Of a stretch of 64,000 nucleotides of DNA, positions 3,193-39,149 are shown one piece after another (position 1 is the first letter of the stretch; the number at the start of each line of letters is the position of its first letter). This stretch comes from Parcubacteria group bacterium (GTDB taxonomy: Bacteria; Patescibacteriota; Minisyncoccia; Moranbacterales; UBA11712). The notes under the pieces were generated by a model. That model had not been told where the DNA came from. It saw only the letters and a program-made list of their open reading frames with translations, and did no database searches. Both the position numbers and the translations under genes were made by a program. Location: assembly GCA_041659685.1 (NCBI GenBank), contig JBAZXV010000003.1:2040-66039 (forward strand), given 5' to 3'.

Positions 3193-3250
3193 TTGCCGAA
3201 AAAAACAGGAGTAATAGAAAGAAAATAGAGGCTTCTATGGAGGCCTCTAA
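3193..3250 (+). repeat. composite intergenic repeat, long form, ending in AATAGAGGCTTCTATGGAGGCCTCTAA
   Basis: Same consensus as the other long-form copies and the same + orientation. Lies immediately 3' of rsgA. Confidence 0.75.
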
Positions 3251-5754: not shown

Positions 5755-6536
5755 TGGGCGATCATCTCAAAAAAATTTCGAAACTGAAAAAATTAAATTT
5801 TGCGGCAAGGCAAAATTTTCATTTTGATAAAAAAAGAGCTGAGAAGTATGAAAACGCTCATGATTACAGGACGAGAACTTTTGATTGGATGGCTAAAACA
5901 ATCAGACCCTGTTTAGCCCAAGCTGAATCCGCCCTTGATGTAGGAACTGGTACCGGCGACTTGGTGAGATCAATAAAAATAAAGGGCGTTTTTACCGGCT
6001 TGGATGTCTCAAAGAATATGTTGGATGTCGCAAGAAAAAAGTGCTCTCATGGCAATTTTGTTCTTGGCAACGCCTATTCCCTGCCCTTCGATGACGAAAG
6101 TTTTGAAGTGGTGATCTACAAATATGCCCTGCATCATCTCAAAAGGCCCTTAAACTCGCTTATCGAGGCATTCAGAGTCATGAAGAATAATGGCCAAGTT
6201 ATCATTGCAGATGTGGCATCGTTTAAAAATAAATCGCATCACTCTATTTTCAAAAAGCTAAACAGCCTCAGGGAGCCGGCGAATTACGAATATCGAACCA
6301 TCGAAACAATACTCAGATTATTGGATAAAGCTGGTTTCAAAAAAGCCAGGATCGTAAAAAAGGATTTTAATTTGATTTTAGAAGATTGGCTGAATCATTT
6401 CTATGAACCTGAAAAAACAATAAACCTGGTCTTAGATTCGCCGATCTCATTCAAAGAGGTTATAAGGTTGAAATCTTTATCGAACCAAAAACATCAAATA
6501 ACACTTACATCCTTTGTCGTTACGGCAAAAAAATAA
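5755..6536 (+). CDS. class I SAM-dependent methyltransferase (Methyltransf_11-like)
   Basis: Motif I LDVGTGTGDL is present, with an acidic motif II/post-I pattern. The start is uncertain (5700, 5755 or later) because the 5' end overlaps a repeat. Confidence 0.75.
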
Positions 6537-6558
6537 ATTGCCAATAAAATTTATCGAT

Positions 6559-6685
6559 ACGGCGCGTTGCCTATCGTGGACGCGCCGTTTTTCAATGGAG
6601 AAATAATATCTCCTCTCCCCCCTTGCTCGAAAAACGAGAAGTGGTAGGATAAATGGATAAATAAAGAGAGACTTCTATAAAAAAT
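6559..6685 (+). repeat. composite repeat: terminator-like hairpin, CAATGGAGAAATAATA, long-form core, degenerate palindrome
   Basis: Near-identical to 4525-4650. Confidence 0.75.
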
Positions 6686-6695
6686 TAACAAAGTA

Positions 6696-7193
6696 ATGAA
6701 AAAAATTTTAGTCACAGGAAATGCCGGCGCCGGAAAAAGCACTTTTAGTCAAAAGCTTGGGGAAAAGTTGAAAATGGAAGTGCATGGTCTCGACAAAATT
6801 GTTTGGCGGCCGGGCTGGAAAAAAACTCCCGACAATGAAAAGAAAGAACTGATCAAAAAGATTACGGACGGAGAAGAGTGGATTATAGACGGTGTGTCTC
6901 AAGATGTTTTCAATGAAGCGGAGGTTGTCATCTTTTTAGATTTTCCAAAGAGAGTTTGTTATTGGAGAGTATTTAAGCGCAATTGGAAATATTTATTTTC
7001 TTCGCGACCGGGGCTTCCAGAAAATTGCCCCGAAATATTGATCATGAAACGGCTCGCGCTGATCATCTGGAAATTTCACAAAAATTATCGTCCGAACCTA
7101 TTGTCCGAAATGAAAAAGCATGAGCAAGCCAAAATAATAGTCCATATTAATTCAAATAAACTGCTGGAGGATTTTCTCTCGCAGGCCGGTTAA
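6696..7193 (+). CDS. P-loop NTPase, adenylate-kinase-like (topology modulation protein-like)
   Basis: N-terminal Walker A motif GNAGAGKST. Size and pattern match the small AAA/adenylate-kinase-like family. Confidence 0.75.
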   Translation: MKKILVTGNAGAGKSTFSQKLGEKLKMEVHGLDKIVWRPGWKKTPDNEKKELIKKITDGEEWIIDGVSQDVFNEAEVVIFLDFPKRVCYWRVFKRNWKYLFSSRPGLPENCPEILIMKRLALIIWKFHKNYRPNLLSEMKKHEQAKIIVHINSNKLLEDFLSQAG

Positions 7194-9897: not shown

Positions 9898-10416
9898 ATG
9901 GACAAAGAAAAAATTATTCAGCCACATGCCAGAGGCGAATATGATAAACTTAATGATTGCTATGAGGGGTTAGCTCAAAAAGTGACAGACTCATTGAATG
10001 AAACAGAAATTGGGATTTATTCTGATTGTTTTTTGCTTCATGCTAGAAATTTAATTGATTTTTTGTGCAATAAAGAGAAAAAAGACTATTTCAAGTGTCC
10101 AAAATGTAAATTACATATTTCAAGAGGCTATACACCCGATGATGTGGTTGCATCTGATTTCTTCTGCGATAAAAATCCACCCTCGAAAAAAACAGATATC
10201 CTTACCGAAGCAGAATATGACAGAATTAATAAACAACTTTCTCATATAACCCGTGCACGTTTGAAAGGTCAAATTAATTTTTTTGATGAAAGAAAATTAT
10301 TTGAAAGTATCTTTAATAATATTAAGGACGAATTGAAAAATTTTGATCAAAAAATAAATCAAGAATACGATTCATTGAAAGCCCGAGACTTAAGAATAAT
10401 TGACAGAGAATCTTAA
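9898..10416 (+). CDS. hypothetical protein, possibly HEPN-like (CxxC plus R-x6-H motif)
   Basis: 172-aa ORF translationally coupled to 9115..9894. Contains CPKC and RINKQLSH (Rx6H) motifs. The HEPN assignment is an inference only. Confidence 0.5.
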   Translation: MDKEKIIQPHARGEYDKLNDCYEGLAQKVTDSLNETEIGIYSDCFLLHARNLIDFLCNKEKKDYFKCPKCKLHISRGYTPDDVVASDFFCDKNPPSKKTDILTEAEYDRINKQLSHITRARLKGQINFFDERKLFESIFNNIKDELKNFDQKINQEYDSLKARDLRIIDRES

Positions 10417-10426
10417 AAAATTAAAT

Positions 10427-10455
10427 AAAATAGAACTTCTATAGAGTCTCCCAAG
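10427..10455 (+). repeat. degenerate copy of the double-palindrome repeat (AAATAGAACTTCTATAGAGTCTC)
   Basis: Similar to the TAGAAGCTTCTATAGAGGCCTCTA family. Confidence 0.55.
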
Positions 10456-10596
10456 TTTCAATTTGAGCGAAGCACGAGTGAAAAGCAGTTTTTTTGACTA
10501 TTTAGATCTTCTGTGGTAGCCTTTTTCGCTAAAAGTAGGTTACTGCATTAAGCGTATAAATTATTAAGATAGTATCAATTGTGATATAATAAAACT

Positions 10597-11205
10597 ATGT
10601 TTGATGACAGAAAAGCGACACAATTACTGAATTATCTTGCACAAAAAGAAGGTGGCAAGATTAACTTCTTAAAGTCGATGAAACTTGTTTATCTCATTGA
10701 TAAGTTTCATTTGAGAAAATACGGCAAAACAATTACAGGCGACCTTTATTATGCAATGAGTAAGGGTCCAGTTGCTTCAAATACTAAAGATATTTGCAAG
10801 TATATACTTCGAGATGATATGGACTATGGAAAAAATGACTATTATGACAAATACATAAAAAAAGGTCGAGTAAAGTTTACTCTTCAATCTATTCAACAGC
10901 CCGACCTTGAGTATTTCTCCGAAGTAGAGATTGAATCTATAGATGCGGTATATGAACAATTCAAGGGTTTCAGCGGTTTTAAATTAGTTGACATTACTCA
11001 CGACACATTTGAATGGAAATGCAAAAGTGAATTTTTAAAAAAAGGAGCCTTGAGAGAGCAAATGAGGTTAAGTGATTTTTTAATCGATCAAAGATATTCT
11101 GAAAGAAGCCCCTTAAGAATATTCAATACAACAAAAACTGATTTAGAAAGGGTTTCAAAAACTTATGATCTAATTAGAAATACTCGGCTGTCTTGTGAAT
11201 GTTGA
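10597..11205 (+). CDS. Panacea-domain (DUF4065 / SocA-like) protein, putative PanA antitoxin
   Basis: N-terminal region LLNYLAQKEGG..KLVYLID..YG..ITGDLYYAMSKGPV matches the DUF4065 signature (KL.Y.....G......A...GPV). Confidence 0.72.
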   Translation: MFDDRKATQLLNYLAQKEGGKINFLKSMKLVYLIDKFHLRKYGKTITGDLYYAMSKGPVASNTKDICKYILRDDMDYGKNDYYDKYIKKGRVKFTLQSIQQPDLEYFSEVEIESIDAVYEQFKGFSGFKLVDITHDTFEWKCKSEFLKKGALREQMRLSDFLIDQRYSERSPLRIFNTTKTDLERVSKTYDLIRNTRLSCEC

Positions 11206-11214
11206 TTGAATACT

Positions 11215-11673
11215 ATGAAGCGCATCAAGCAGATTGAAGAAGAAATTACTAAGGGTGTTGGTGCAGTTTTCAGATTCATAAACCCAGAATATTCAACGAG
11301 CATTCACCACTTTAAAATTCTTATAGGTATTGATAAATCGAAAGCAAAAGATGTTTTGCTTTTTCTAACCTGCACCTCAAAAAGTATTGTGATGAGAAGC
11401 TATGTGTTGATAAGTAATGTATTAATTATAAATAAAGATGAATATTGCGAATTAAGTGAAGAAACCTCAATTTTATGTAATGATATTGAAACTGTAAATA
11501 TTGATGACCTAGTTGGAAAATATCTCTCAGATTGCGAATTTAAGGTTTGCGAACGAATTAGTGATGATTTGTTAATTCGCATTTACCAAGTTATAAAAGA
11601 TTCGAGAGAGGTTAGCAAAAAACATAAAAAAATTATAAGAAAAAATTTGAACCAGAAAGGGATCATTGATTGA
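11215..11673 (+). CDS. hypothetical protein, candidate cognate toxin of the upstream Panacea antitoxin
   Basis: The ORF begins 10 nt after the stop of 10597..11205. No recognisable domain. The role is inferred from gene-pair architecture. Confidence 0.5.
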   Translation: MKRIKQIEEEITKGVGAVFRFINPEYSTSIHHFKILIGIDKSKAKDVLLFLTCTSKSIVMRSYVLISNVLIINKDEYCELSEETSILCNDIETVNIDDLVGKYLSDCEFKVCERISDDLLIRIYQVIKDSREVSKKHKKIIRKNLNQKGIID

Positions 11674-11700
11674 CGTTGCACAATTAATTCGAAACTATTA

Positions 11701-11778
11701 ACGGCCCGTAAGGCCTGTTTTTCTTTTTTTATGACTCTGTTAAAATGAAATAGAAGCTTCTATAGAGGCCTCTAAAAG
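11701..11778 (+). repeat. composite repeat: GGCCCGTAAGGCC hairpin + T-run, CTCTGTTAAAATGAAA, double palindrome
   Basis: Near-identical to 17322-17390. Confidence 0.75.
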
Positions 11779-11801
11779 TTTCAAATTATAGATTTTTAAA
11801 T

Positions 11802-12410
11802 ATGAAAAATAAATTTCAGATCTGTGTTTGCGGATGGTATTATTATCCAGAGTTTTATAAAGCCCTGCTTAGAGTCAAAGATAAATTCAGCATTATTGTA
11901 ATTGGAAATAAAGAAGGAGAAGTTTTTAATTTGCCTTTTGTCTTGAGAAACAATATCGGTTTGGATTGGGGTGCTTATTCTTTTTTTCTTGATAATAAAT
12001 GGGACGGCAAATCAAATGTTTTGTTTATGCAGGACGATTCAACAGTTTCTGATGGTTTTTTTGAGGAAATGTCCAAAATTTCTTTCGACCAAGCCTTTAT
12101 ATTTCGCAACCAAAAAGAGTTTGAAGAAAATTATAGCCACGGGAGAGCTTTTTTCGCTTCCGGAAAATTTCTTAAAAACTTGAATGAAGATGGCGGGATT
12201 TTGTTTGATGAAGGCAACAATGGTTTCATCGCCAAAGGGACTTCTTGGTCAGAAAAGCCGCCCAAGGGTTGCCAAGACCATAATGCGGGAATAAGAGACT
12301 TTACTTCAAAAGTTAAACGAATCGGTGAAAATAATCCTGAACTATCGGTAAATAAACAAGTTTATTCTGAAAAAGTGCGCTTGGGAAGAAGAGGAGTAAT
12401 CAGTAGATAA
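11802..12410 (+). CDS. hypothetical protein (Cys-rich N-terminus CVCGWYYYPEFY)
   Basis: 202-aa ORF in the AT-rich island. No domain recognised. Confidence 0.5.
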   Translation: MKNKFQICVCGWYYYPEFYKALLRVKDKFSIIVIGNKEGEVFNLPFVLRNNIGLDWGAYSFFLDNKWDGKSNVLFMQDDSTVSDGFFEEMSKISFDQAFIFRNQKEFEENYSHGRAFFASGKFLKNLNEDGGILFDEGNNGFIAKGTSWSEKPPKGCQDHNAGIRDFTSKVKRIGENNPELSVNKQVYSEKVRLGRRGVISR

Positions 12411-13591: not shown

Positions 13592-13762
13592 ATGGCTGAG
13601 AAAAAAGGTATAATCAAGCTTAAGAAAGCGAGTGCGTATAGTTTTTCCGTGACCATCCCGAAAGAAATCATCGAGAAATATAAATGGAGGGAAAAACAAA
13701 AGCTGGTCGTCACCGACAAAGGCCGCGGGAAGATAGAGATCAGCGATTGGCGGAGGAAGTGA
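13592..13762 (+). CDS. small AbrB/MazE/SpoVT-like (looped-hinge helix) DNA-binding protein, multicopy family
   Basis: 56 aa, below the ORF-track cutoff. Motif SFSVTIPKEIIEKY...DKGRGKIEISDWRR resembles the swapped-hairpin AbrB fold. A paralog lies at 18396..18575. Confidence 0.6.
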   Translation: MAEKKGIIKLKKASAYSFSVTIPKEIIEKYKWREKQKLVVTDKGRGKIEISDWRRK

Positions 13763-16129: not shown

Positions 16130-16205
16130 AAATGGAGGCTTCTATCGCCTGCGGCAGAGGCCGCGGCGTGGTTGAAATCTGCGATTGGAGGAAAAGATAA
16201 TTAAC
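16130..16205 (+). pseudogene. decayed remnant: repeat fragment (GAGGCTTCTAT) fused to the AbrB-like gene 3' end (..GRGRGVVEICDWRKR*)
   Basis: Direct similarity to 13700-13762 and 18520-18575. Confidence 0.55.
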
Positions 16206-18395: not shown

Positions 18396-18575
18396 ATGAC
18401 TGAGAAAAAAGGCGTCCACAAGCTTAAGAAATCGAGCGCGTATAGTTTCTCCGTGACCATCCCCAAAGAAATCGTCGAAAAATACGGCTGGAAAGAGAAG
18501 CAAAAGCTGGCAGTCATCGACAAAGGCCGCGGCGTCGTCGAGATCCGCGACTGGCGGAAGAGGCAATTCAAATAG
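18396..18575 (+). CDS. small AbrB/MazE/SpoVT-like protein, second copy
   Basis: 59 aa, about 70% identical to the 13592..13762 product. Confidence 0.6.
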   Translation: MTEKKGVHKLKKSSAYSFSVTIPKEIVEKYGWKEKQKLAVIDKGRGVVEIRDWRKRQFK

Positions 18576-20623: not shown

Positions 20624-20745
20624 CTCCTGTTGAATAATGCGAGCCGCGATTCAACGGGGAAAGTAAAAAATATGCCTGAGAAAAAATCCACTCATAAGCT
20701 CAAAAAATCGTTCTCGAAGAAGGCGTTTAATGGGGAGATATAGAA
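20620..20745 (+). pseudogene. truncated AbrB-like gene copy with upstream IR (MPEKKSTHKLKKSFSKKAFNGEI*)
   Basis: The 5' part matches 13543-13650 (IR + start) and is then interrupted by a stop. Confidence 0.55.
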
Positions 20746-20825
20746 TTAATTGGGTAGATTACTATATTATTGAGTAGATTTGATGGGTATTTGTGTAGAT
20801 TTTGATAATATGATACCATAGGAGC

Positions 20826-21545
20826 ATGGAAGAAAAATTACTTACAATTGGTCAAGCTGCGGAATATTTGGGGGTTTCTTTGAATACACTTCGCCGTTGG
20901 GATGAAAGCGGTAAATTGGTTGCGATCAAAAAAGAGGGCGGGACTCATCGTTATTACCGTGAAGATGATTTGGAAATATTTTCCAGTGATTTAACGAGGT
21001 TTGCTACGGAATGGATCCGAAATGGAGTTGAATTTCCAGGCACATTTTATTGCCAGACAAGTTCAATTTTTAACGCGAAATTGACGAAAATGCAAAGCGC
21101 GCTGATGCAAAAGCCAGGGTTTGAAGAGCTATATTCCTTGATTGTTTTAATTGCCGGAGAAATTGGCGATAATTCATTTGCTCACAATTTAGGGAAGTGG
21201 CCGGATACCGCGGGAATCTTTTTTGGTTATGATCTTGAAAAACGAATAATTGTTCTTGCTGACAGAGGATTGGGTATCTTGGAAACACTGCGACAAGTTC
21301 GACCGAAACTTCCAAATCATGTGGAAGCGGTAAAAGTAGCATTTACGGAATTTGTTTCCGGGCGTGCGCCGGAAAAGCGAGGCAACGGCCTTAAGCTTGT
21401 TCGCGAGGTTGTCACCGATCAGCCAATTGATTTATTTTTTATCAGCGGTGACGCCGAAGTGCGCATGAAAGGGCAAAATAAAGTATTTCGTGTTACGCGC
21501 GGCCAGCATATTGTGAGAGGATGTCTGGCTAAAATAGAATTCTAA
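20826..21545 (+). CDS. MerR-family HTH fused to a GHKL (HATPase_c, RsbW-like) ATPase/kinase domain
   Basis: N-terminal TIGQAAEYLGVSLNTLRRWDESGKL matches the MerR HTH. The C-terminal region has an N-box-like EIGDN..AHN and a G-box-like GRAPEKRGNGLKLV. Confidence 0.65.
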   Translation: MEEKLLTIGQAAEYLGVSLNTLRRWDESGKLVAIKKEGGTHRYYREDDLEIFSSDLTRFATEWIRNGVEFPGTFYCQTSSIFNAKLTKMQSALMQKPGFEELYSLIVLIAGEIGDNSFAHNLGKWPDTAGIFFGYDLEKRIIVLADRGLGILETLRQVRPKLPNHVEAVKVAFTEFVSGRAPEKRGNGLKLVREVVTDQPIDLFFISGDAEVRMKGQNKVFRVTRGQHIVRGCLAKIEF

Positions 21546-21567
21546 TACATCTTAAAAAGCAAAATAT

Positions 21568-21867
21568 ATGAAATTACAAATCGAAAAATTCGGCAAGACA
21601 TTAATTTCGCGGGAATTAGGCCGAGAGGCATTTAAGGCCTTTCAGCCAACCTTGCGCGACCTTCCTAAAAATGAAGATCTGGAGATAGATTTTTCCGGAG
21701 TATTGACATTGTCGCCATCATGGGCTGATGAATTTTTAAGCCCATTATTTGATCAACTGGATGACAAGTTAATAATCTTGCCAAGCGATAATCTTTCGGT
21801 GCGTGCGACGCTTAAAATTCTCGAAGAGGTCAATAAGCGGCCGTTCAAGATCAGGCCGCAATCCTGA
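21568..21867 (+). CDS. STAS-like (DUF4325-type) small protein, putative partner of the upstream GHKL protein
   Basis: 99 aa. The pattern is consistent with STAS/anti-sigma antagonist-like proteins. It lies 22 nt downstream of the previous gene. Confidence 0.55.
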   Translation: MKLQIEKFGKTLISRELGREAFKAFQPTLRDLPKNEDLEIDFSGVLTLSPSWADEFLSPLFDQLDDKLIILPSDNLSVRATLKILEEVNKRPFKIRPQS

Positions 21868-21929: not shown

Positions 21930-21982
21930 AGTCGAACAAAGGCCGCGGCGTGGTGGAAATCCGCGATTGGCGGAAGAAGTGA
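21930..21982 (+). pseudogene. 3' remnant of the AbrB-like gene (..KGRGVVEIRDWRKK*)
   Basis: Matches 18520-18575 with no start codon. Confidence 0.55.
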
Positions 21983-22503: not shown

Positions 22504-22622
22504 TTCCAATCCCCCACCAGCTCGAGCCGGCTGGTTTTTTGATTTTCTGAAAATGCCACGCGGCTGGCTTTTTTATTGGAAAAAAATAGGTTATAATTAA
22601 ACAAAGCAAACAATTGTTTTTT

Positions 22623-25600
22623 ATGGCGTCAAGAATTGTGAAATTTTTTGGTGTTCGAAATAAGATATTCCGAATATCGGTTTTTTTGTTTGCCTTTTTT
22701 CTTTTCTATTTCATTTCACCCGGCTCGGCCTTTGCAAGCTATGCCGGAGAATATTGGAACCTGCCCTCTCCCGCCGCATCCCCCTCTTTTCCCGGCGGAT
22801 CGCCGAATTACACGAGAACTGATTCGGATATCAATTTCAACTGGGGAGAATCTTCGCCAGCGCCCGGAACGATAAACATAGACGGCTTTGTGGCCCGCTG
22901 GACGGAGACGAAAAACTTTGACGCCGGAACATACTATTTCAGCGCCACATCCGACGACGGCGTCAGGGTATATGTCGACAGCACTTTGATTTTGAATTCC
23001 TGGATAGACCAGGCGCCAAAATTCTATAGCGCTTCTTCCAATATTTCCGCCGGAAGCCATACAATTAAAGTAGAATATTACGAAAACGGCGGCGGAGCCG
23101 TTTGCCAGTTTTCCTATTATAAACGAAACCCCAGCGTCTCCACTTTTTCTCCGTCCGACAACGCCACCGGCATCAGTCCGACCGGAAATTTGGTCCTGAA
23201 TTTTGACCAGACGGTATACACCAGCGCCAGCGGCAGCAATGATTTCGTCATCAAAAAGGCTTCGGACGATTCCACTATTGAAACTATTGACGCGAAAGAC
23301 GCCAAAGTCAGCGGCCACGGAACCTCCACCATCACTATCAATCCGGCGGCCACGTTCGAGGAACAAACCGCCTACTATGTCCAAATCGGTTCCGATGCCG
23401 TCTATAACGGTTCCGGCTATTATTACGGCGGCATAAGCGACTCGGCAACCTGGAATTTCACCACAGGCGACTTCACTAACCCCGCTGTTTCAACCTATTC
23501 CCCGGCGGATGACGCCGCGGACATCGACACGACGGCTATTTTGGTATTGACGTTCACCGAGCCAGTGACTGCTAAAGCCGGCGCCGACAACGATATCGTC
23601 ATCAAGAAAATTTCCAACAATTTTTCCGTGGAAACGATTGATGCGCTTGATGCCAAGGTGACCGGTTCAGGCACAACCGCCATTGCCATTAATCCCGAAG
23701 TAATTTTAGACGAACAAACTGCCTATTATGTTCAAATCGGCGCGGACGCCTTCGACGACACGGCTGGAAATTCATACGCCGGAATCTCCAGCACAACCGC
23801 CTGGAATTTCACAACTGAAGATGTCACTGCCCCTTCGGGCGGCTTAATCACATACACCGACGGCTATAACACGACCGGATCGGTATCGCTCACGTCAAAC
23901 GACGGCGCGGAAAACGGCTCAGGCATTAATTCTTCTTCCAGAATTGTCCAGCGAAAATCGGCGACGCTCTCGGACGGAACTTGCGGAAGTTTCGGCATTT
24001 TTTCGACCATCAGCTCAACAGGTGCATACCCGAATCTCACCGACGCAACTGCGACTTCCGGAAACTGCTATAAATATCAATATTTGGTTTCCGATATGGC
24101 CGGCAATCAGGCGGCCTATACTTCGAGTAATATCGCGAAAGTGGATACGGACGGCCCGATTACCGATGCCGGATCCGACGAGACAAAAAATGCCCAATTT
24201 TCGAAAAATGGTGCCGCTTCCGACAATGTTTCCGGCATAGCCGGCTACCTTTGGGAAAAGCAATCCGGCCCCGGCATAATCACCTTCGGCACAGCAACCG
24301 ACGAAGACACGACCGTTTCGACTGATACGGACGGAACTTATGTCATCCGCTTCACCACCAATGACAATGCCGGCAATTCCGCTTACGATGAATTTACTCT
24401 GACCTGGGATGCAAGCGCGCCCGGCACTCCCGCCGTTTCCCCTCCCTCCGGAACCTATACTTCGACTCAATCCGTCGAACTGACTTCCGCCGGCAGCAGT
24501 GAAATATATTACACGACCGACGGCGACACCCCCACTGCGAGTTCCGCCCTCTATTCCTCCGCCATTACAGTTGACCATTCCATGACCATCAAAGCCCTGG
24601 CAGTGGACGCGATTGGAAATGAAAGTCCAGTTCTGACGGCCCATTATACGGTAAATTTGGATTCCGACTCCCCGTCAATCTCCAGTGTCAGAGCCGATCC
24701 CTCGGCCAGCTCGGCCGAAGTAACCTGGAAAACCAACGAGGACTCTTCATCACAGGTGGAATACGGACTCGCATCGAGCTATGGAAATACTACTTCCGAA
24801 TTCGACACATCCCCGCGCGTCACAAGCCATTCCGTGTCTCTGAGCGGCCTTCAATCCTGCGCAAAATACTATTTCCGCGTGAAGTCCGAAGACGAATCTT
24901 CAAACAATGCCGTTTCCTCCCGGTCAACTTTCTATACTTCAGGCTGTGAAGCTTCTCAAATTTCGGACGGAGAAGGCGATTTCATCGACACTTCCGGCGG
25001 ATCAGTCTCGATCGCCACCGCCCAGGGAACTGCCGCGCTGATCGCTCCCGAAAACTTCTATTCCGAAACCGCCGCCATCCAGCTTAATATGCTTGAGATG
25101 GACAATTCTCCTTCGGCTCCTTCGGGAATGAATTTTGTGAATGATAATTTCTTCGAACTGCTGGCGGTCTCCTCAAACGGGGAAAAAATCGATAATTTCG
25201 ACCACACTGTCACTTTCACTGTAAACTACGGATCCGATACGGAAAATCAATATGTCGAAAGCACTTTGGACGTTTACAAATATTTCGGCGGAACATGGAC
25301 TAAAAAAGATTGCGCTCTTGATACCGGCGCCAACACCCTCACTTGCCTGTTAAACAGCTTTTCTTCATACGCCGTGTTGGGAGATGAAAATGTTGAAGAT
25401 GCTCCGATCGAAGATGTTTCGAATGAAAATACTCCGGTTGAGGATACTCCTGTCGAGAATATTTCAACCGAAGCTGTTCCGGATAAAGATGCGCAAAAGG
25501 CCCGTGTCGACTCCTGGAAGGCAAAACAATACACCACCGATGGTTCCTGCTCAAACAAGCTGAAGCTCACAATCAAGGGCCGGCATTTTAATAAAGGAGT

Positions 25601-26018
25601 CGAGGTGAGGATAGGCGGAACAAAAGCCGATGATGTTGACCGGGAAAACAGCCGAAAAATGACAGCTAAATTTTGCCTGGATGATCTATTCGGCGTTAAA
25701 ACCGATTATGCGCGAAAAATTCACGTCATCAATCCGAACGCCGATACCGCCAAAGCCAAGAAGAAGATTCATTTGGACAGGATCGGCCCCGATTTGAGAG
25801 CGTCGATCAATAACTTTGATCCCGAATCATCGAAGGGCGTAAAAAATATCCAACAAGCCCTGGTCAATCTCGGTTTTTTGAACAGCCAATGCGTGACGGG
25901 CACTTACGGCCCTCTCACAATCGAGGCAGTCAAAAAATTTCAGCAGAAGAACGGACTGCCGACGACCGGATATTCCGGCCCACTCACAAAGGCTAAATTC
26001 ATGAAAAAATTCAAATAA
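22623..26018 (+). CDS. giant secreted cell-surface protein: signal peptide, PA14, 3x Ig-like (SbsA/Big_5), CHB_HEX_C-like, FN3, C-terminal peptidoglycan-binding domain
   Basis: PA14-like block (DGFVARWTETKNF..GTYYFSATSDDGVRVYVD). Three tandem repeats of about 83 aa. The C-terminal PG_binding_1 motif is present (GTYGPLTIEAVKKFQQKNGLPTTG). Confidence 0.88.
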   Translation: MASRIVKFFGVRNKIFRISVFLFAFFLFYFISPGSAFASYAGEYWNLPSPAASPSFPGGSPNYTRTDSDINFNWGESSPAPGTINIDGFVARWTETKNFDAGTYYFSATSDDGVRVYVDSTLILNSWIDQAPKFYSASSNISAGSHTIKVEYYENGGGAVCQFSYYKRNPSVSTFSPSDNATGISPTGNLVLNFDQTVYTSASGSNDFVIKKASDDSTIETIDAKDAKVSGHGTSTITINPAATFEEQTAYYVQIGSDAVYNGSGYYYGGISDSATWNFTTGDFTNPAVSTYSPADDAADIDTTAILVLTFTEPVTAKAGADNDIVIKKISNNFSVETIDALDAKVTGSGTTAIAINPEVILDEQTAYYVQIGADAFDDTAGNSYAGISSTTAWNFTTEDVTAPSGGLITYTDGYNTTGSVSLTSNDGAENGSGINSSSRIVQRKSATLSDGTCGSFGIFSTISSTGAYPNLTDATATSGNCYKYQYLVSDMAGNQAAYTSSNIAKVDTDGPITDAGSDETKNAQFSKNGAASDNVSGIAGYLWEKQSGPGIITFGTATDEDTTVSTDTDGTYVIRFTTNDNAGNSAYDEFTLTWDASAPGTPAVSPPSGTYTSTQSVELTSAGSSEIYYTTDGDTPTASSALYSSAITVDHSMTIKALAVDAIGNESPVLTAHYTVNLDSDSPSISSVRADPSASSAEVTWKTNEDSSSQVEYGLASSYGNTTSEFDTSPRVTSHSVSLSGLQSCAKYYFRVKSEDESSNNAVSSRSTFYTSGCEASQISDGEGDFIDTSGGSVSIATAQGTAALIAPENFYSETAAIQLNMLEMDNSPSAPSGMNFVNDNFFELLAVSSNGEKIDNFDHTVTFTVNYGSDTENQYVESTLDVYKYFGGTWTKKDCALDTGANTLTCLLNSFSSYAVLGDENVEDAPIEDVSNENTPVEDTPVENISTEAVPDKDAQKARVDSWKAKQYTTDGSCSNKLKLTIKGRHFNKGVEVRIGGTKADDVDRENSRKMTAKFCLDDLFGVKTDYARKIHVINPNADTAKAKKKIHLDRIGPDLRASINNFDPESSKGVKNIQQALVNLGFLNSQCVTGTYGPLTIEAVKKFQQKNGLPTTGYSGPLTKAKFMKKFK

Positions 26019-38703: not shown

Positions 38704-38807
38704 TTTGGTTTTCTTTAGCTGGTTAAATGCCAGCGGAAAACACAAAAGGCCTCCCGCTCGCCGACAACCCCTTTCGGAGTTGTCCACTACCCTTTCGAGT
38801 AGCGACA

Positions 38808-38858
38808 TTACTACATGATAGCGAAACGGAAAGCCGTTTCTATGTAGTAATGTTTTTA
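38808..38858. promoter_or_regulatory. inverted repeat CATTACTACATG-N25-CATGTAGTAATG upstream of the FGE-domain gene
   Basis: Perfect 12-bp arms, seen directly. Function unknown. Confidence 0.4.
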
Positions 38859-39149
38859 GGTGCCATGCTCCGACGCAACGTCGGAGTTTAGGCGTAAATT
38901 GTTGGCTTTATTATACTATTTCAAAAAAAACGCGCAAGTAGCAAACATTCTCCCCGCACTCTTCGGGATGTTCGAGTGGATATTTTTGCACGGGGCGAAA
39001 ATACTTTGCCAGCCAAATAACTCTTTTTTTCGAATCTGGAATATCCATTTCTAAAGTTGAACTCTGAAGTGACCATGGCGGACGAATGAAAGAAAACGCT
39101 CATTTTGCAGGTATAAATAAAAAGATTGTCAATATTTTTTACACGCCTG

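Follow-up and report, generated by a model that had tools for sequence, protein, structure and literature searches.

A highly conserved gene pair of Patescibacteria as a probable autoregulated relative of the CapK/CapS and VapK/VapS kinase-STAS systems

The window analysed here, a stretch of 64,000 nucleotides (64 kb) from a Parcubacteria group bacterium (GenBank assembly GCA_041659685.1, contig JBAZXV010000003.1), contains two adjacent genes on the forward strand, referred to as A and B, that we propose to form a self-contained, autoregulated kinase/STAS signalling pair, specific to Patescibacteria and a minimal relative of CapK/CapS and VapK/VapS. We hold this reading with slightly better than even confidence. 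Gene A (20826-21545, + strand) encodes a protein of 239 residues in which a helix-turn-helix (HTH) domain is followed by a GHKL domain, and which its sequence marks as a putative DNA-binding serine kinase. Gene B (21568-21867, + strand) encodes a STAS-like protein of 99 residues of the DUF4325 type. The two genes are separated by 22 nt, and each is present as a single copy in the window.

The N-terminal part of A is a winged HTH. Residues 5-51 (20838-20978, + strand) matched the Pfam families HTH_17 (E 8.5e-12), MerR_1 (E 1.8e-10) and MerR (E 2.3e-9), and in NCBIfam the domain matched excisionase-type HTH models as well as HTH_BldC, the latter at 28.2 bits, far under the family cut-off of 77. 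The top sequence matches of A in the PDB are 6AMK and 6AMA, two BldC-DNA structures, making BldC, a MerR-like protein of Streptomyces, the closest solved relative of this domain. BldC consists of 68 residues and an HTH only, and it binds direct repeats of ~9-10 bp head to tail as multimers (PMC5859096). The likeness of A to BldC lies in the type of HTH and in proposed operators that are direct repeats rather than classical MerR palindromes. A is nonetheless not a member of the BldC family, which comprises small HTH-only proteins scoring at least 77 bits, as its HTH is fused to a GHKL domain and its repeats lie 20-21 bp apart; nor is it a classical MerR protein, in which a coiled-coil dimerisation helix and an effector domain come after the winged HTH and a palindromic operator lies in a promoter spacer of 19-20 bp, given the GHKL domain after the HTH of A and the upstream direct repeats in a 20/21-bp phase. 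We also considered whether A might be Mad1 of the MADS defence system and rejected this assignment: the PADLOC mad1 match (E 2e-14) spans residues 1-55 and thus the HTH only, the NCBIfam MAD1 model scored 13.5 bits against a cut-off of 80, and no mad genes lie nearby, where an eight-gene operon would be expected.

Behind the HTH lies a helical linker (residues 56-95, + strand) with a near-invariant tryptophan, W63, followed by the GHKL domain at roughly residues 100-239 (21123-21542, + strand). Sequence searches of the PDB for the GHKL half (phmmer and profile) returned HTH proteins only for A, and a search of residues 55-239 against 1.84 billion representative proteins found only 305 relatives, which fall into two architectures, one of ~240-250 residues with the HTH and one of ~185-205 residues without it. 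When 50 relatives were aligned, the invariant residues of the C-terminal half coincided exactly with the GHKL motifs: E112, N116, H120 and N121 for the N-box, of the form ExxxNxxxH (E112-H120, 21159-21185, + strand); D146, G148 and G150 for the G1 box (D146-G150, 21261-21275, + strand); and R185, G186, G188, L189 and K190 for the G2 box (R185-K190, 21378-21395, + strand). Weak matches to HATPase_c_2 were found in 10 of the 50 relatives (best E 8.7e-4) and weak matches to HATPase_c in four.

The predicted structure of A agrees with these motifs. An AlphaFold2 model (predicted local distance difference test score, pLDDT, 93; predicted template modelling score, pTM, 0.81) was compared with the PDB using Foldseek, and the top 50 matches were all GHKL ATPase domains, among them Hsp90/TRAP1, GyrB and topoisomerase II, with Foldseek probabilities of 0.90-1.0 (at least 0.94 in 46 of the 50) and a best E-value of 2.6e-4. 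The template modelling (TM) scores of these matches were low (~0.3) because the query included the HTH. With invariant motifs, weak HATPase matches among relatives, the Foldseek result and the profile alignments to VapK and CapK described below, we conclude that the C-terminal half of A is a GHKL (Bergerat) fold in which the ATP-binding motifs are all intact; the N-box, the G1 and G2 boxes and the Bergerat fold that define the superfamily are each present. The fusion of a MerR-type HTH to a GHKL domain, which a first-pass annotation of this DNA had read from the letters of the window, is thereby confirmed.

The Foldseek list also invites a different interpretation, in which A is not a kinase but a DNA-binding GHKL ATPase comparable to MutL, MORC, GyrB or Hsp90, whose ATP-dependent dimerisation would clamp or bridge DNA at the repeats while B regulates the ATPase cycle. 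All of the top 50 structural matches are ATPases rather than SpoIIAB or RsbW, the invariant N-box residue Glu112 corresponds to the general base of GHKL ATPases, and the repeats upstream of A, all facing the same side of the helix, would lend themselves to oligomer assembly. We consider this interpretation quite unlikely, however. The profile similarity of A is clearly best to the kinases CapK and VapK, and the ExxxNxxxH form of its N-box is common to SpoIIAB, CapK and VapK. Moreover, the model contains helices only between the HTH and the GHKL domain, and its Bergerat core of ~140 residues comes with no transducer (S5-fold) domain. Finally, an obligate STAS partner of the substrate type, with an invariant serine, points to phosphotransfer.

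This partner is the product of gene B. The B protein of the window scored 22.7 bits (E 8.1e-5) against Pfam DUF4325 (PF14213), for which the gathering threshold is 23; the family was matched by all 21 aligned relatives of B (best E 2.2e-10), and a precomputed PF14213 assignment is present in many B homologues. The AlphaFold2 model of B (pLDDT 93) is a small alpha/beta domain, and its best full-length Foldseek matches are STAS proteins, namely RsbS (3ZXN, 2VY9 and 6JHK; TM 0.59-0.66), SLC26 STAS domains and the anti-sigma-F antagonist RsfB (8IH8), although the E-values of these matches are weak (0.1-1.5). In addition, the B-family profile matched the solved structure 9Z7O, a 2026 PDB entry named "Escherichia VapS" (E 0.0039). 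B consists of a bare STAS domain, as do all its relatives (83-113 residues in length), and it ends ~10 residues past the last STAS helix. These results bear out the earlier call of a 99-residue STAS-like ORF of the DUF4325 type 22 nt after A.

In STAS proteins of the SpoIIAA type the phosphorylated serine lies at the N-terminus of helix alpha2. Residues that are invariant in 42 diverse B sequences include P50, S51, W52, D54, E55 and F56, which sit at this same place, and the S51-W52 pair (codons 21718-21723, + strand) thus contains the candidate phospho-acceptor, S51, with S49 as an alternative. We also asked whether B could be a detached version of the STAS domain that CapK and VapK carry in cis, and discarded the idea when profile comparison showed no resemblance. 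Because B is unlike those cis domains, it is, to judge from its sequence, a STAS protein of the VapS/CapS type, that is, of the substrate type.

CapK/CapS and VapK/VapS were described experimentally in June 2026 (Chambers, Rani, Min, Villa and Corbett, EMBO J 2026; PMC13373217). CapK is an HTH-STAS-GHKL kinase and CapS a STAS-winged-HTH repressor, and their genes lie upstream of immune operons, often adjacent to restriction-modification systems; CapK activated by single-stranded DNA (ssDNA) phosphorylates Ser54 of CapS, which breaks the CapS dimer and de-represses transcription, and deletion of the CapK HTH has no effect (PMC13373217). In the VapKSC system, the STAS-GHKL kinase VapK is accompanied by the STAS antitoxin VapS, with its phospho-site at Ser48, and by the PIN toxin VapC, and in both kinases the cis STAS domain and the GHKL domain together form a groove for ssDNA, which in CapK includes Trp68 (PMC13373217). 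VapC proteins of group PIN.4 had earlier been catalogued as "transcriptionally coupled to DUF4325" (PMC5499597).

We took the sequences of CapK, CapS, VapK and VapS from the source data of PMC13373217 and compared them by hhalign with profiles of the A and B families. The A family aligned with VapK at 90% probability (E 1.6e-6; A 84-236 to VapK 125-285) and with CapK at 81% (E 1.2e-5; A 106-215 to CapK 208-336), and the B family aligned with VapS at 72% (E 3.3e-5) and with CapS at 33% (E 4.6e-4). The A family profile against SpoIIAB, by comparison, gave 0.7% (E 0.077), with a SpoIIAB query whose identity was checked against the anti-sigma-F structures 1TIL (E 2e-68) and 1TID (E 9.4e-64). In sequence A is therefore closer to CapK and VapK than to SpoIIAB and RsbW. 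The motifs tell the same story: the N-boxes read GEIGDNSFAH in A, WEIYANSFEH in VapK and SELIGNVRDH in CapK, and the G2 boxes RGNGLK, RGLGLH and RGLGLK, respectively.

Several features are shared between CapKS and the A-B pair. CapK, like A, has an N-terminal HTH, a C-terminal GHKL domain and a STAS gene directly next to its own; the GHKL domains of the two proteins are homologous and have the ExxxNxxxH, DxGxG and RGxGLK motifs in common. CapS, like B, has an invariant serine at the start of helix alpha2, and in the alignment B Ser51 falls on the CapS phospho-site Ser54. Furthermore, operators in the CapKS promoter region mediate autoregulation of that operon, as we predict for A-B from the sequences described below. 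The two systems differ in three features that define CapKS, namely a STAS domain in cis, a STAS partner with a winged HTH, and an effector operon downstream. CapK (368 residues) has a STAS domain between HTH and GHKL, which A (239 residues) lacks, so that the N-box asparagine is residue 218 in CapK and 116 in A, and the HTH of CapK is of another type, with which the MerR/BldC-type HTH of A did not align. CapS carries a C-terminal winged HTH and acts as a repressor on palindromes, whereas B is a bare STAS domain, leaving the HTH of A as the only DNA-binding domain of the pair, and the A-B operators are direct repeats. Across diverse bacteria, immune operons (CBASS, Bub and others) are found behind CapKS, whereas no conserved genes follow A-B.

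VapKSC is the best sequence relative of both A and B. The N-boxes of A and VapK are nearly identical (EIxxNSFxH), and VapS belongs to Pfam DUF4325, as do the relatives of B, the window's own B lying just under the threshold. VapK, however, has an N-terminal cis STAS domain and no HTH, in contrast to the HTH and operator array of A; the PIN toxin VapC is blocked by a C-terminal helix of VapS (residues 94-116), a tail that B lacks; and no conserved third gene in the place of vapC was found in 81 A-B loci. Taken together, these comparisons identify A-B as a minimal DNA-binding variant of the CapK/VapK-type kinase and STAS family, a kind of system that has itself been known since 2026. The first-pass annotation had regarded the architecture as uncharacterised, a description overtaken by the detectable homology of A and B to CapK/CapS and VapK/VapS.

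The same annotation had likened the pair to an anti-sigma kinase and its antagonist, and as an analogy this holds. SpoIIAB-SpoIIAA and RsbW-RsbV each consist of a small GHKL serine kinase and a single-domain STAS protein of ~100 residues, a division of roles that A and B would share if A is, by analogy, a kinase; the phospho-acceptor serine of SpoIIAA and RsbV sits at the N-terminus of helix alpha2, as does the candidate serine of B. A literal version of the analogy is classical partner switching, with A sequestering a sigma factor that is released when unphosphorylated B binds. The GHKL motifs of A align with those of SpoIIAB motif for motif, and the serine of B occupies a position like that of SpoIIAA Ser58. 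We regard this version as highly improbable, because the hhalign comparison with SpoIIAB was not significant (E 0.077, 0.7%), no conserved sigma factor or PP2C phosphatase lies nearby, and a kinase fused to its own DNA-binding domain, with an operator, makes a sigma target unnecessary. When all ORFs within ~5 kb on each side were clustered for 81 loci, neither a sigma factor nor a PP2C phosphatase emerged as a conserved neighbour within this distance, though either could be located elsewhere in the genome.

The DNA upstream of A contains a short array of operator-like direct repeats. In the window, repeat 1 (TGGGTAGATT, 20751..20760, + strand) is an exact match to TGNGTAGATT, and an equivalent repeat is kept in 75 of 76 loci compared; repeat 2 (TGAGTAGATT, 20771..20780, + strand) follows 20 bp after it, and repeat 3 (TGTGTAGATT, 20792..20801, + strand) another 21 bp on, starting 34 nt before the ATG of A. 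Exact copies of TGNGTAGATT occur at three sites only in the 64 kb window, all of them upstream of A. The repeats read TGnGTAGATT and lie in a 20/21-bp phase just upstream of A. Across loci, at least three repeats fitting TGNNTAGNTT, with one mismatch allowed, are present in 75 of the 76 loci, the spacing is 20 bp 72 times and 21 bp 78 times, 63 loci have a distance of 34-35 nt from the start of the last repeat to the ATG, and a fourth repeat is often present another 21 bp upstream. The repeat core carries 1.49 bits of information per position, compared with 0.72 bits at third codon positions of gene A.

The association of the array with this operon is close to exclusive. In 720 kb of scanned DNA (80 loci and the window), 172 of 180 phased arrays lie directly before an A gene, the other eight being weak pairs. 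A scan of metagenome contigs for the exact pattern yielded a further view, with 108 arrays, of which 106 had room for a downstream gene; 87 of these precede A and 11 precede B directly. By tblastn, B is found without an intact A in 12 of the 108 operator loci (L097, L122, L131, L132, L136, L151, L154, L162, L172, L178, L180 and L190), where A has been deleted and the operator array and promoter run directly into B; L190 keeps the last 17 codons of A. A search of the 64 kb window for further repeat arrays, which might have indicated a regulon, found none, and single sites with one mismatch occurred at chance frequency.

A simple promoter scan placed a sigma-70-like promoter (TTGATG, 18 nt, GATAAT) at 20780-20809, with repeat 3 inside the spacer, and this position of repeat 3 suggests repression. 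Between repeat 3 and the start codon, a putative, partly palindromic -10-like element, TATGATAnnAT (20809..20819, + strand), was derived as the consensus of 75 upstream regions. A probably controls the expression of its own operon.

The repeats fall into two main classes, TG[A/G/T]GTAGATT (the G class, 35 loci) and TGCATAG[A/T]TT (the CA class, 40 loci). Among the 239 positions of A, the best predictors of class are residues 20 (N versus D), 14 (Y versus I) and 19 (L versus I); residues 19 and 20 lie in the recognition helix (S18-W25) and residue 14 at the end of the preceding helix. On a neighbour-joining tree restricted to A residues 60-239, there are ~11 changes of repeat class, and residue 20 moves in step with them, being N in 32 of 32 G-class and D in 33 of 37 CA-class cases; a variant with Q20 (L027) has TGTATAGATT repeats. 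Because repeat class co-varies with residues of the HTH, these sequences suggest that the HTH of A reads the repeats directly. The idea that partner switching is coupled directly to DNA binding, raised in the first-pass annotation, is thus strengthened as far as coupling of a kinase/STAS pair to DNA is concerned, by the array and by the tracking of its class with HTH residues, and is not sustained in the classical sense that would involve a conserved sigma factor or PP2C phosphatase nearby.

The linkage of A and B is nearly invariant. In a scan of species-representative genomes we found 80 loci, with 66-89% identity and almost all in Patescibacteria, and B follows 7-69 nt downstream of A in all 79 loci with room for it, so that the STAS neighbour is indeed kept next to homologues of A, which was the co-occurrence that the annotation had proposed to survey. 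Among metagenome loci selected by their operator, B comes directly after A in 74 of 75, a GIY-YIG gene lies between them in one, and A without B was seen in none. Even for distant relatives of A, including those without the HTH, a DUF4325 gene is immediately downstream. One such pair of an HTH-less GHKL gene and a DUF4325 gene (L081, 4001-4873) sits between def, encoding peptide deformylase, and fmt-rpsP-KH-trmD, a housekeeping rather than island-like context. In this HTH-less subfamily the B-type partners are less common (134 clusters) and vary more, and some come from metagenome-assembled genomes (MAGs) labelled Magasanikbacteria.

Homologues of A form 4,370 clusters, the best 120 of which are 84-94% identical, nearly all exactly 239 residues long, and drawn from MAGs named Jorgensen-, Sungii- and Peregrinibacteria, Paceibacterota, Minisyncoccia and similar; homologues of B form 1,330 clusters at 80-100% identity, from Falkow-, Uhr-, Woese-, Azam- and Peregrinibacteria. 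The A-B pair is confined to Patescibacteria and exceptionally conserved. Across the phylum the identity of A and B is ~75-90%, despite saturation at synonymous sites. In comparisons of the window with other loci, nonsynonymous divergence (pN) has a median of 0.10 and synonymous divergence (pS) a median of 0.71, a saturated value. GC content at third codon positions (GC3) follows that of the host locus. Recent horizontal transfer as the source of the high identity was ruled out by these two observations. Since pS is saturated and GC3 host-like, the sequences indicate that the high identity of A and B is the product of long-term purifying selection, not recent transfer; ancient transfer or recombination may have occurred. 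When the same pairs of genomes were compared, median identity was 42% for shared neighbouring protein families, some of which may be paralogues, 78% for A and 80% for B, and in none of 82 comparisons was a neighbour more conserved than A. The literature on DUF4325, or on Patescibacteria together with STAS or anti-sigma proteins, yielded no description of this family from the candidate phyla radiation (CPR).

No conserved gene accompanies the pair. The clustering of ORFs around the 81 loci returned no conserved neighbour, the commonest being small GIY-YIG genes (10 loci), Bro-N (6), Fic (6) and ABC, NYN and restriction-modification genes (4-5 each), and neither a third conserved gene nor a PIN or other toxin gene was found in these loci. 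These results bear on the possibility that A-B is a regulator of the CapKS type, which would sense DNA damage as ssDNA and de-repress the defence genes of an immune or stress operon next to it. The homology of A and B to CapK and CapS is in keeping with this, and restriction-modification genes lie near some loci, as is often the case with CapKS. Nevertheless, we judge such a role very unlikely: no family is conserved up- or downstream, where the next commonest neighbour occurs in just 10 of the 81 loci, operator arrays stand before A or B only, and A has neither the cis STAS domain nor the Trp68-type ssDNA groove, just as B is without the winged HTH of CapS.

An alternative to which we give somewhat more weight, while still thinking it unlikely, is a toxin-antitoxin-like or addiction module, in which A would be a toxic kinase (compare HipA-type kinases and the logic of VapKSC) restrained by B, with autoregulation through the HTH of A as in type II toxin-antitoxin systems. 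The bicistronic operon with an operator and an HTH on one product has the appropriate form, the context is variable and island-like (restriction-modification, Fic, Bro-N, GIY-YIG), the relative VapS is an antitoxin (PMC13373217), and the cassette lies inside a broken AbrB/MazE-like gene in the window and is duplicated in one genome. There is also an asymmetry, B standing alone in 12 of 108 loci and A without B never being seen, although this is equally explained if B is the functional output. Extreme phylum-wide conservation, saturated synonymous sites and host-adapted GC3 are unlike typical toxin-antitoxin or defence genes, however; indeed, an addiction module conserved to this extreme degree would be unusual in its own right. 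The 81 loci contain no gene for a PIN toxin or any other toxin, the PADLOC match is confined to the HTH, and the family is essentially absent from 2.9 million viral contigs. A phage origin was rejected on the same grounds, as the 2.9 million IMG/VR contigs contained one relative, found via degenerate family patterns only. A tblastn search for VapS-like genes on plasmids gave a single irrelevant Leptotrichia fragment. The suggestion in the first-pass annotation of an accessory or defence module among mobile-looking genes is therefore right about the context, with its variable gene content and many restriction-modification, Fic, Bro-N and GIY-YIG genes, and fits poorly with the strong purifying selection, the lack of a conserved effector and the near absence of viral-contig relatives.

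Returning to the autoregulated kinase/STAS pair that we favour, we propose the following mechanism. Several copies of A would line up at the repeats along one face of the DNA, covering the promoter spacer and -35 region, and so set the expression of their own operon, repression being the likelier direction of this action. Because the repeats are phased at 20/21 bp, cooperativity would have to run through the GHKL domains. By analogy with the docking of SpoIIAA by SpoIIAB and of CapS by CapK, the GHKL domain of A would dock B and phosphorylate Ser51, and the bound or phosphorylated state of B would alter the oligomeric state of A or its affinity for DNA. The transcriptional output would then be the DNA-bound kinase A, rather than the STAS protein as with CapS. 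Reset might occur by new synthesis through autoregulation, as proposed for CapS. Since A is without a cis STAS domain, sensing of ssDNA by A cannot be assumed.

A number of observations weigh against this proposal. The C-terminal half of the window's A protein has no Pfam match at all, HATPase included, and its top structural matches are ATPases such as Hsp90 and GyrB rather than SpoIIAB or RsbW; the GHKL fold, which the first-pass annotation had exposed to refutation by domain searches, nonetheless stands on the other evidence given above. The phospho-site register is ambiguous by one residue relative to VapS, where S48 aligns to Pro50 of B. Only ~100 bp separates the repeats from the HTH codons, and recombination at the 5' end of the locus could produce their co-variation without a functional link, and the repeats of BldC are ~9-10 bp apart compared with 20-21 bp here. 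B without an intact A in 12 of 108 operator loci implies that B has or keeps a role without an adjacent A. Lastly, the 81 loci include no conserved nearby phosphatase that could reset the switch.

Both proteins are extremely conserved, which suggests that A and B also contact a conserved cellular partner. A more far-reaching version of our proposal is a near-core switch found throughout Patescibacteria, in which A is at once a sequence-specific transcription factor and a serine kinase, its occupancy of the operator is set by binding and phosphorylating B, and the 75-90% identity of both proteins between classes of so deeply divergent a phylum would reflect the engagement of a universally conserved partner or signal. 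We put this version forward tentatively and consider it doubtful; if it is true, A-B would have a central place in the physiological regulation of a reduced group of bacteria that is for the most part uncultured. Gene regulation in the tiny-celled Patescibacteria (CPR), whose tiny genomes encode few recognisable regulators and of which very few have been cultured, is almost entirely uncharted. The A-B pair is useful in this regard, as it occurs in many CPR lineages, is conserved above its neighbours, has a definable operator and is homologous to the recently characterised CapKS and VapKSC. It thereby offers a testable entry point, with DNA sites, a candidate phospho-serine, candidate catalytic residues and natural co-variants of operator and HTH. 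The pair also widens the CapK/VapK family, to include a GHKL-STAS core with neither the ssDNA-sensing cis STAS domain nor an immune effector, and a case in which the DNA-binding role can sit on the kinase and not on the STAS protein.

The surroundings of the pair in the window bear traces of rearrangement. An N-terminal fragment of an AbrB/MazE-like gene (13 codons, 20672..20710, + strand) lies just upstream of the operator array and a C-terminal fragment (15 codons, 21935..21979, + strand) just downstream of B, both outside the A-B system, so that the cassette with its operators stands between two halves of a broken gene as if inserted or recombined there, an arrangement unseen in the other 80 loci. 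Further AbrB/MazE-like copies are found at 13592-13759 and 18396-18572 (both intact) and at 16156-16197 (a fragment). Elsewhere, locus L076 contains operator plus A twice (843-1740 and 5840-6737), 5 kb apart and with 98.7% DNA identity, which reflects a recent duplication or else strain variants assembled together, and in L156 (3452-4764, - strand) a GIY-YIG gene is inserted between A and B. The broken AbrB-like gene, the L076 duplication and the L156 insertion show that the A-B locus is a site of rearrangement although its proteins barely change. Small free-standing GIY-YIG genes, the commonest neighbour, were noted at L156, L122, L162 and L178 and in 10 of the 81 genome loci; they look like elements of the homing-endonuclease type that settle by a highly conserved target.

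Other features of the window are recorded here as minor observations. Two palindromes side by side, ATAGAAGCTTCTAT-GGAGGCCTC, make up a 23-nt element that is present in 10 copies with at most three mismatches, against none expected by chance, at positions 3225, 7981, 11750, 13488, 17362, 18335, 19873, 20588, 22477 and 36576, all on the + strand. The copies lie mostly at or just past the 3' ends of + strand genes (for example Bro-N, MFS and HD), and the element may act as a terminator, as a processing site or as a site of protein binding that sets gene cassettes apart. Rfam yielded a single match in the window, a LOOT RNA (RF03000) at 38763-38894 on the - strand, at 70.5 bits compared with a gathering threshold of 46.4. 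GC content falls sharply to 0.30 at 10001-12000, the rest of the window ranging from 0.40 to 0.53. About 750 nt downstream of B, which stops at 21867, an ORF of 1,134 residues (22614-26018, + strand) shows by eye an N-terminal hydrophobic stretch resembling a signal peptide, repeats of Ig-like/SbsA type and a C-terminus resembling peptidoglycan-binding domains.

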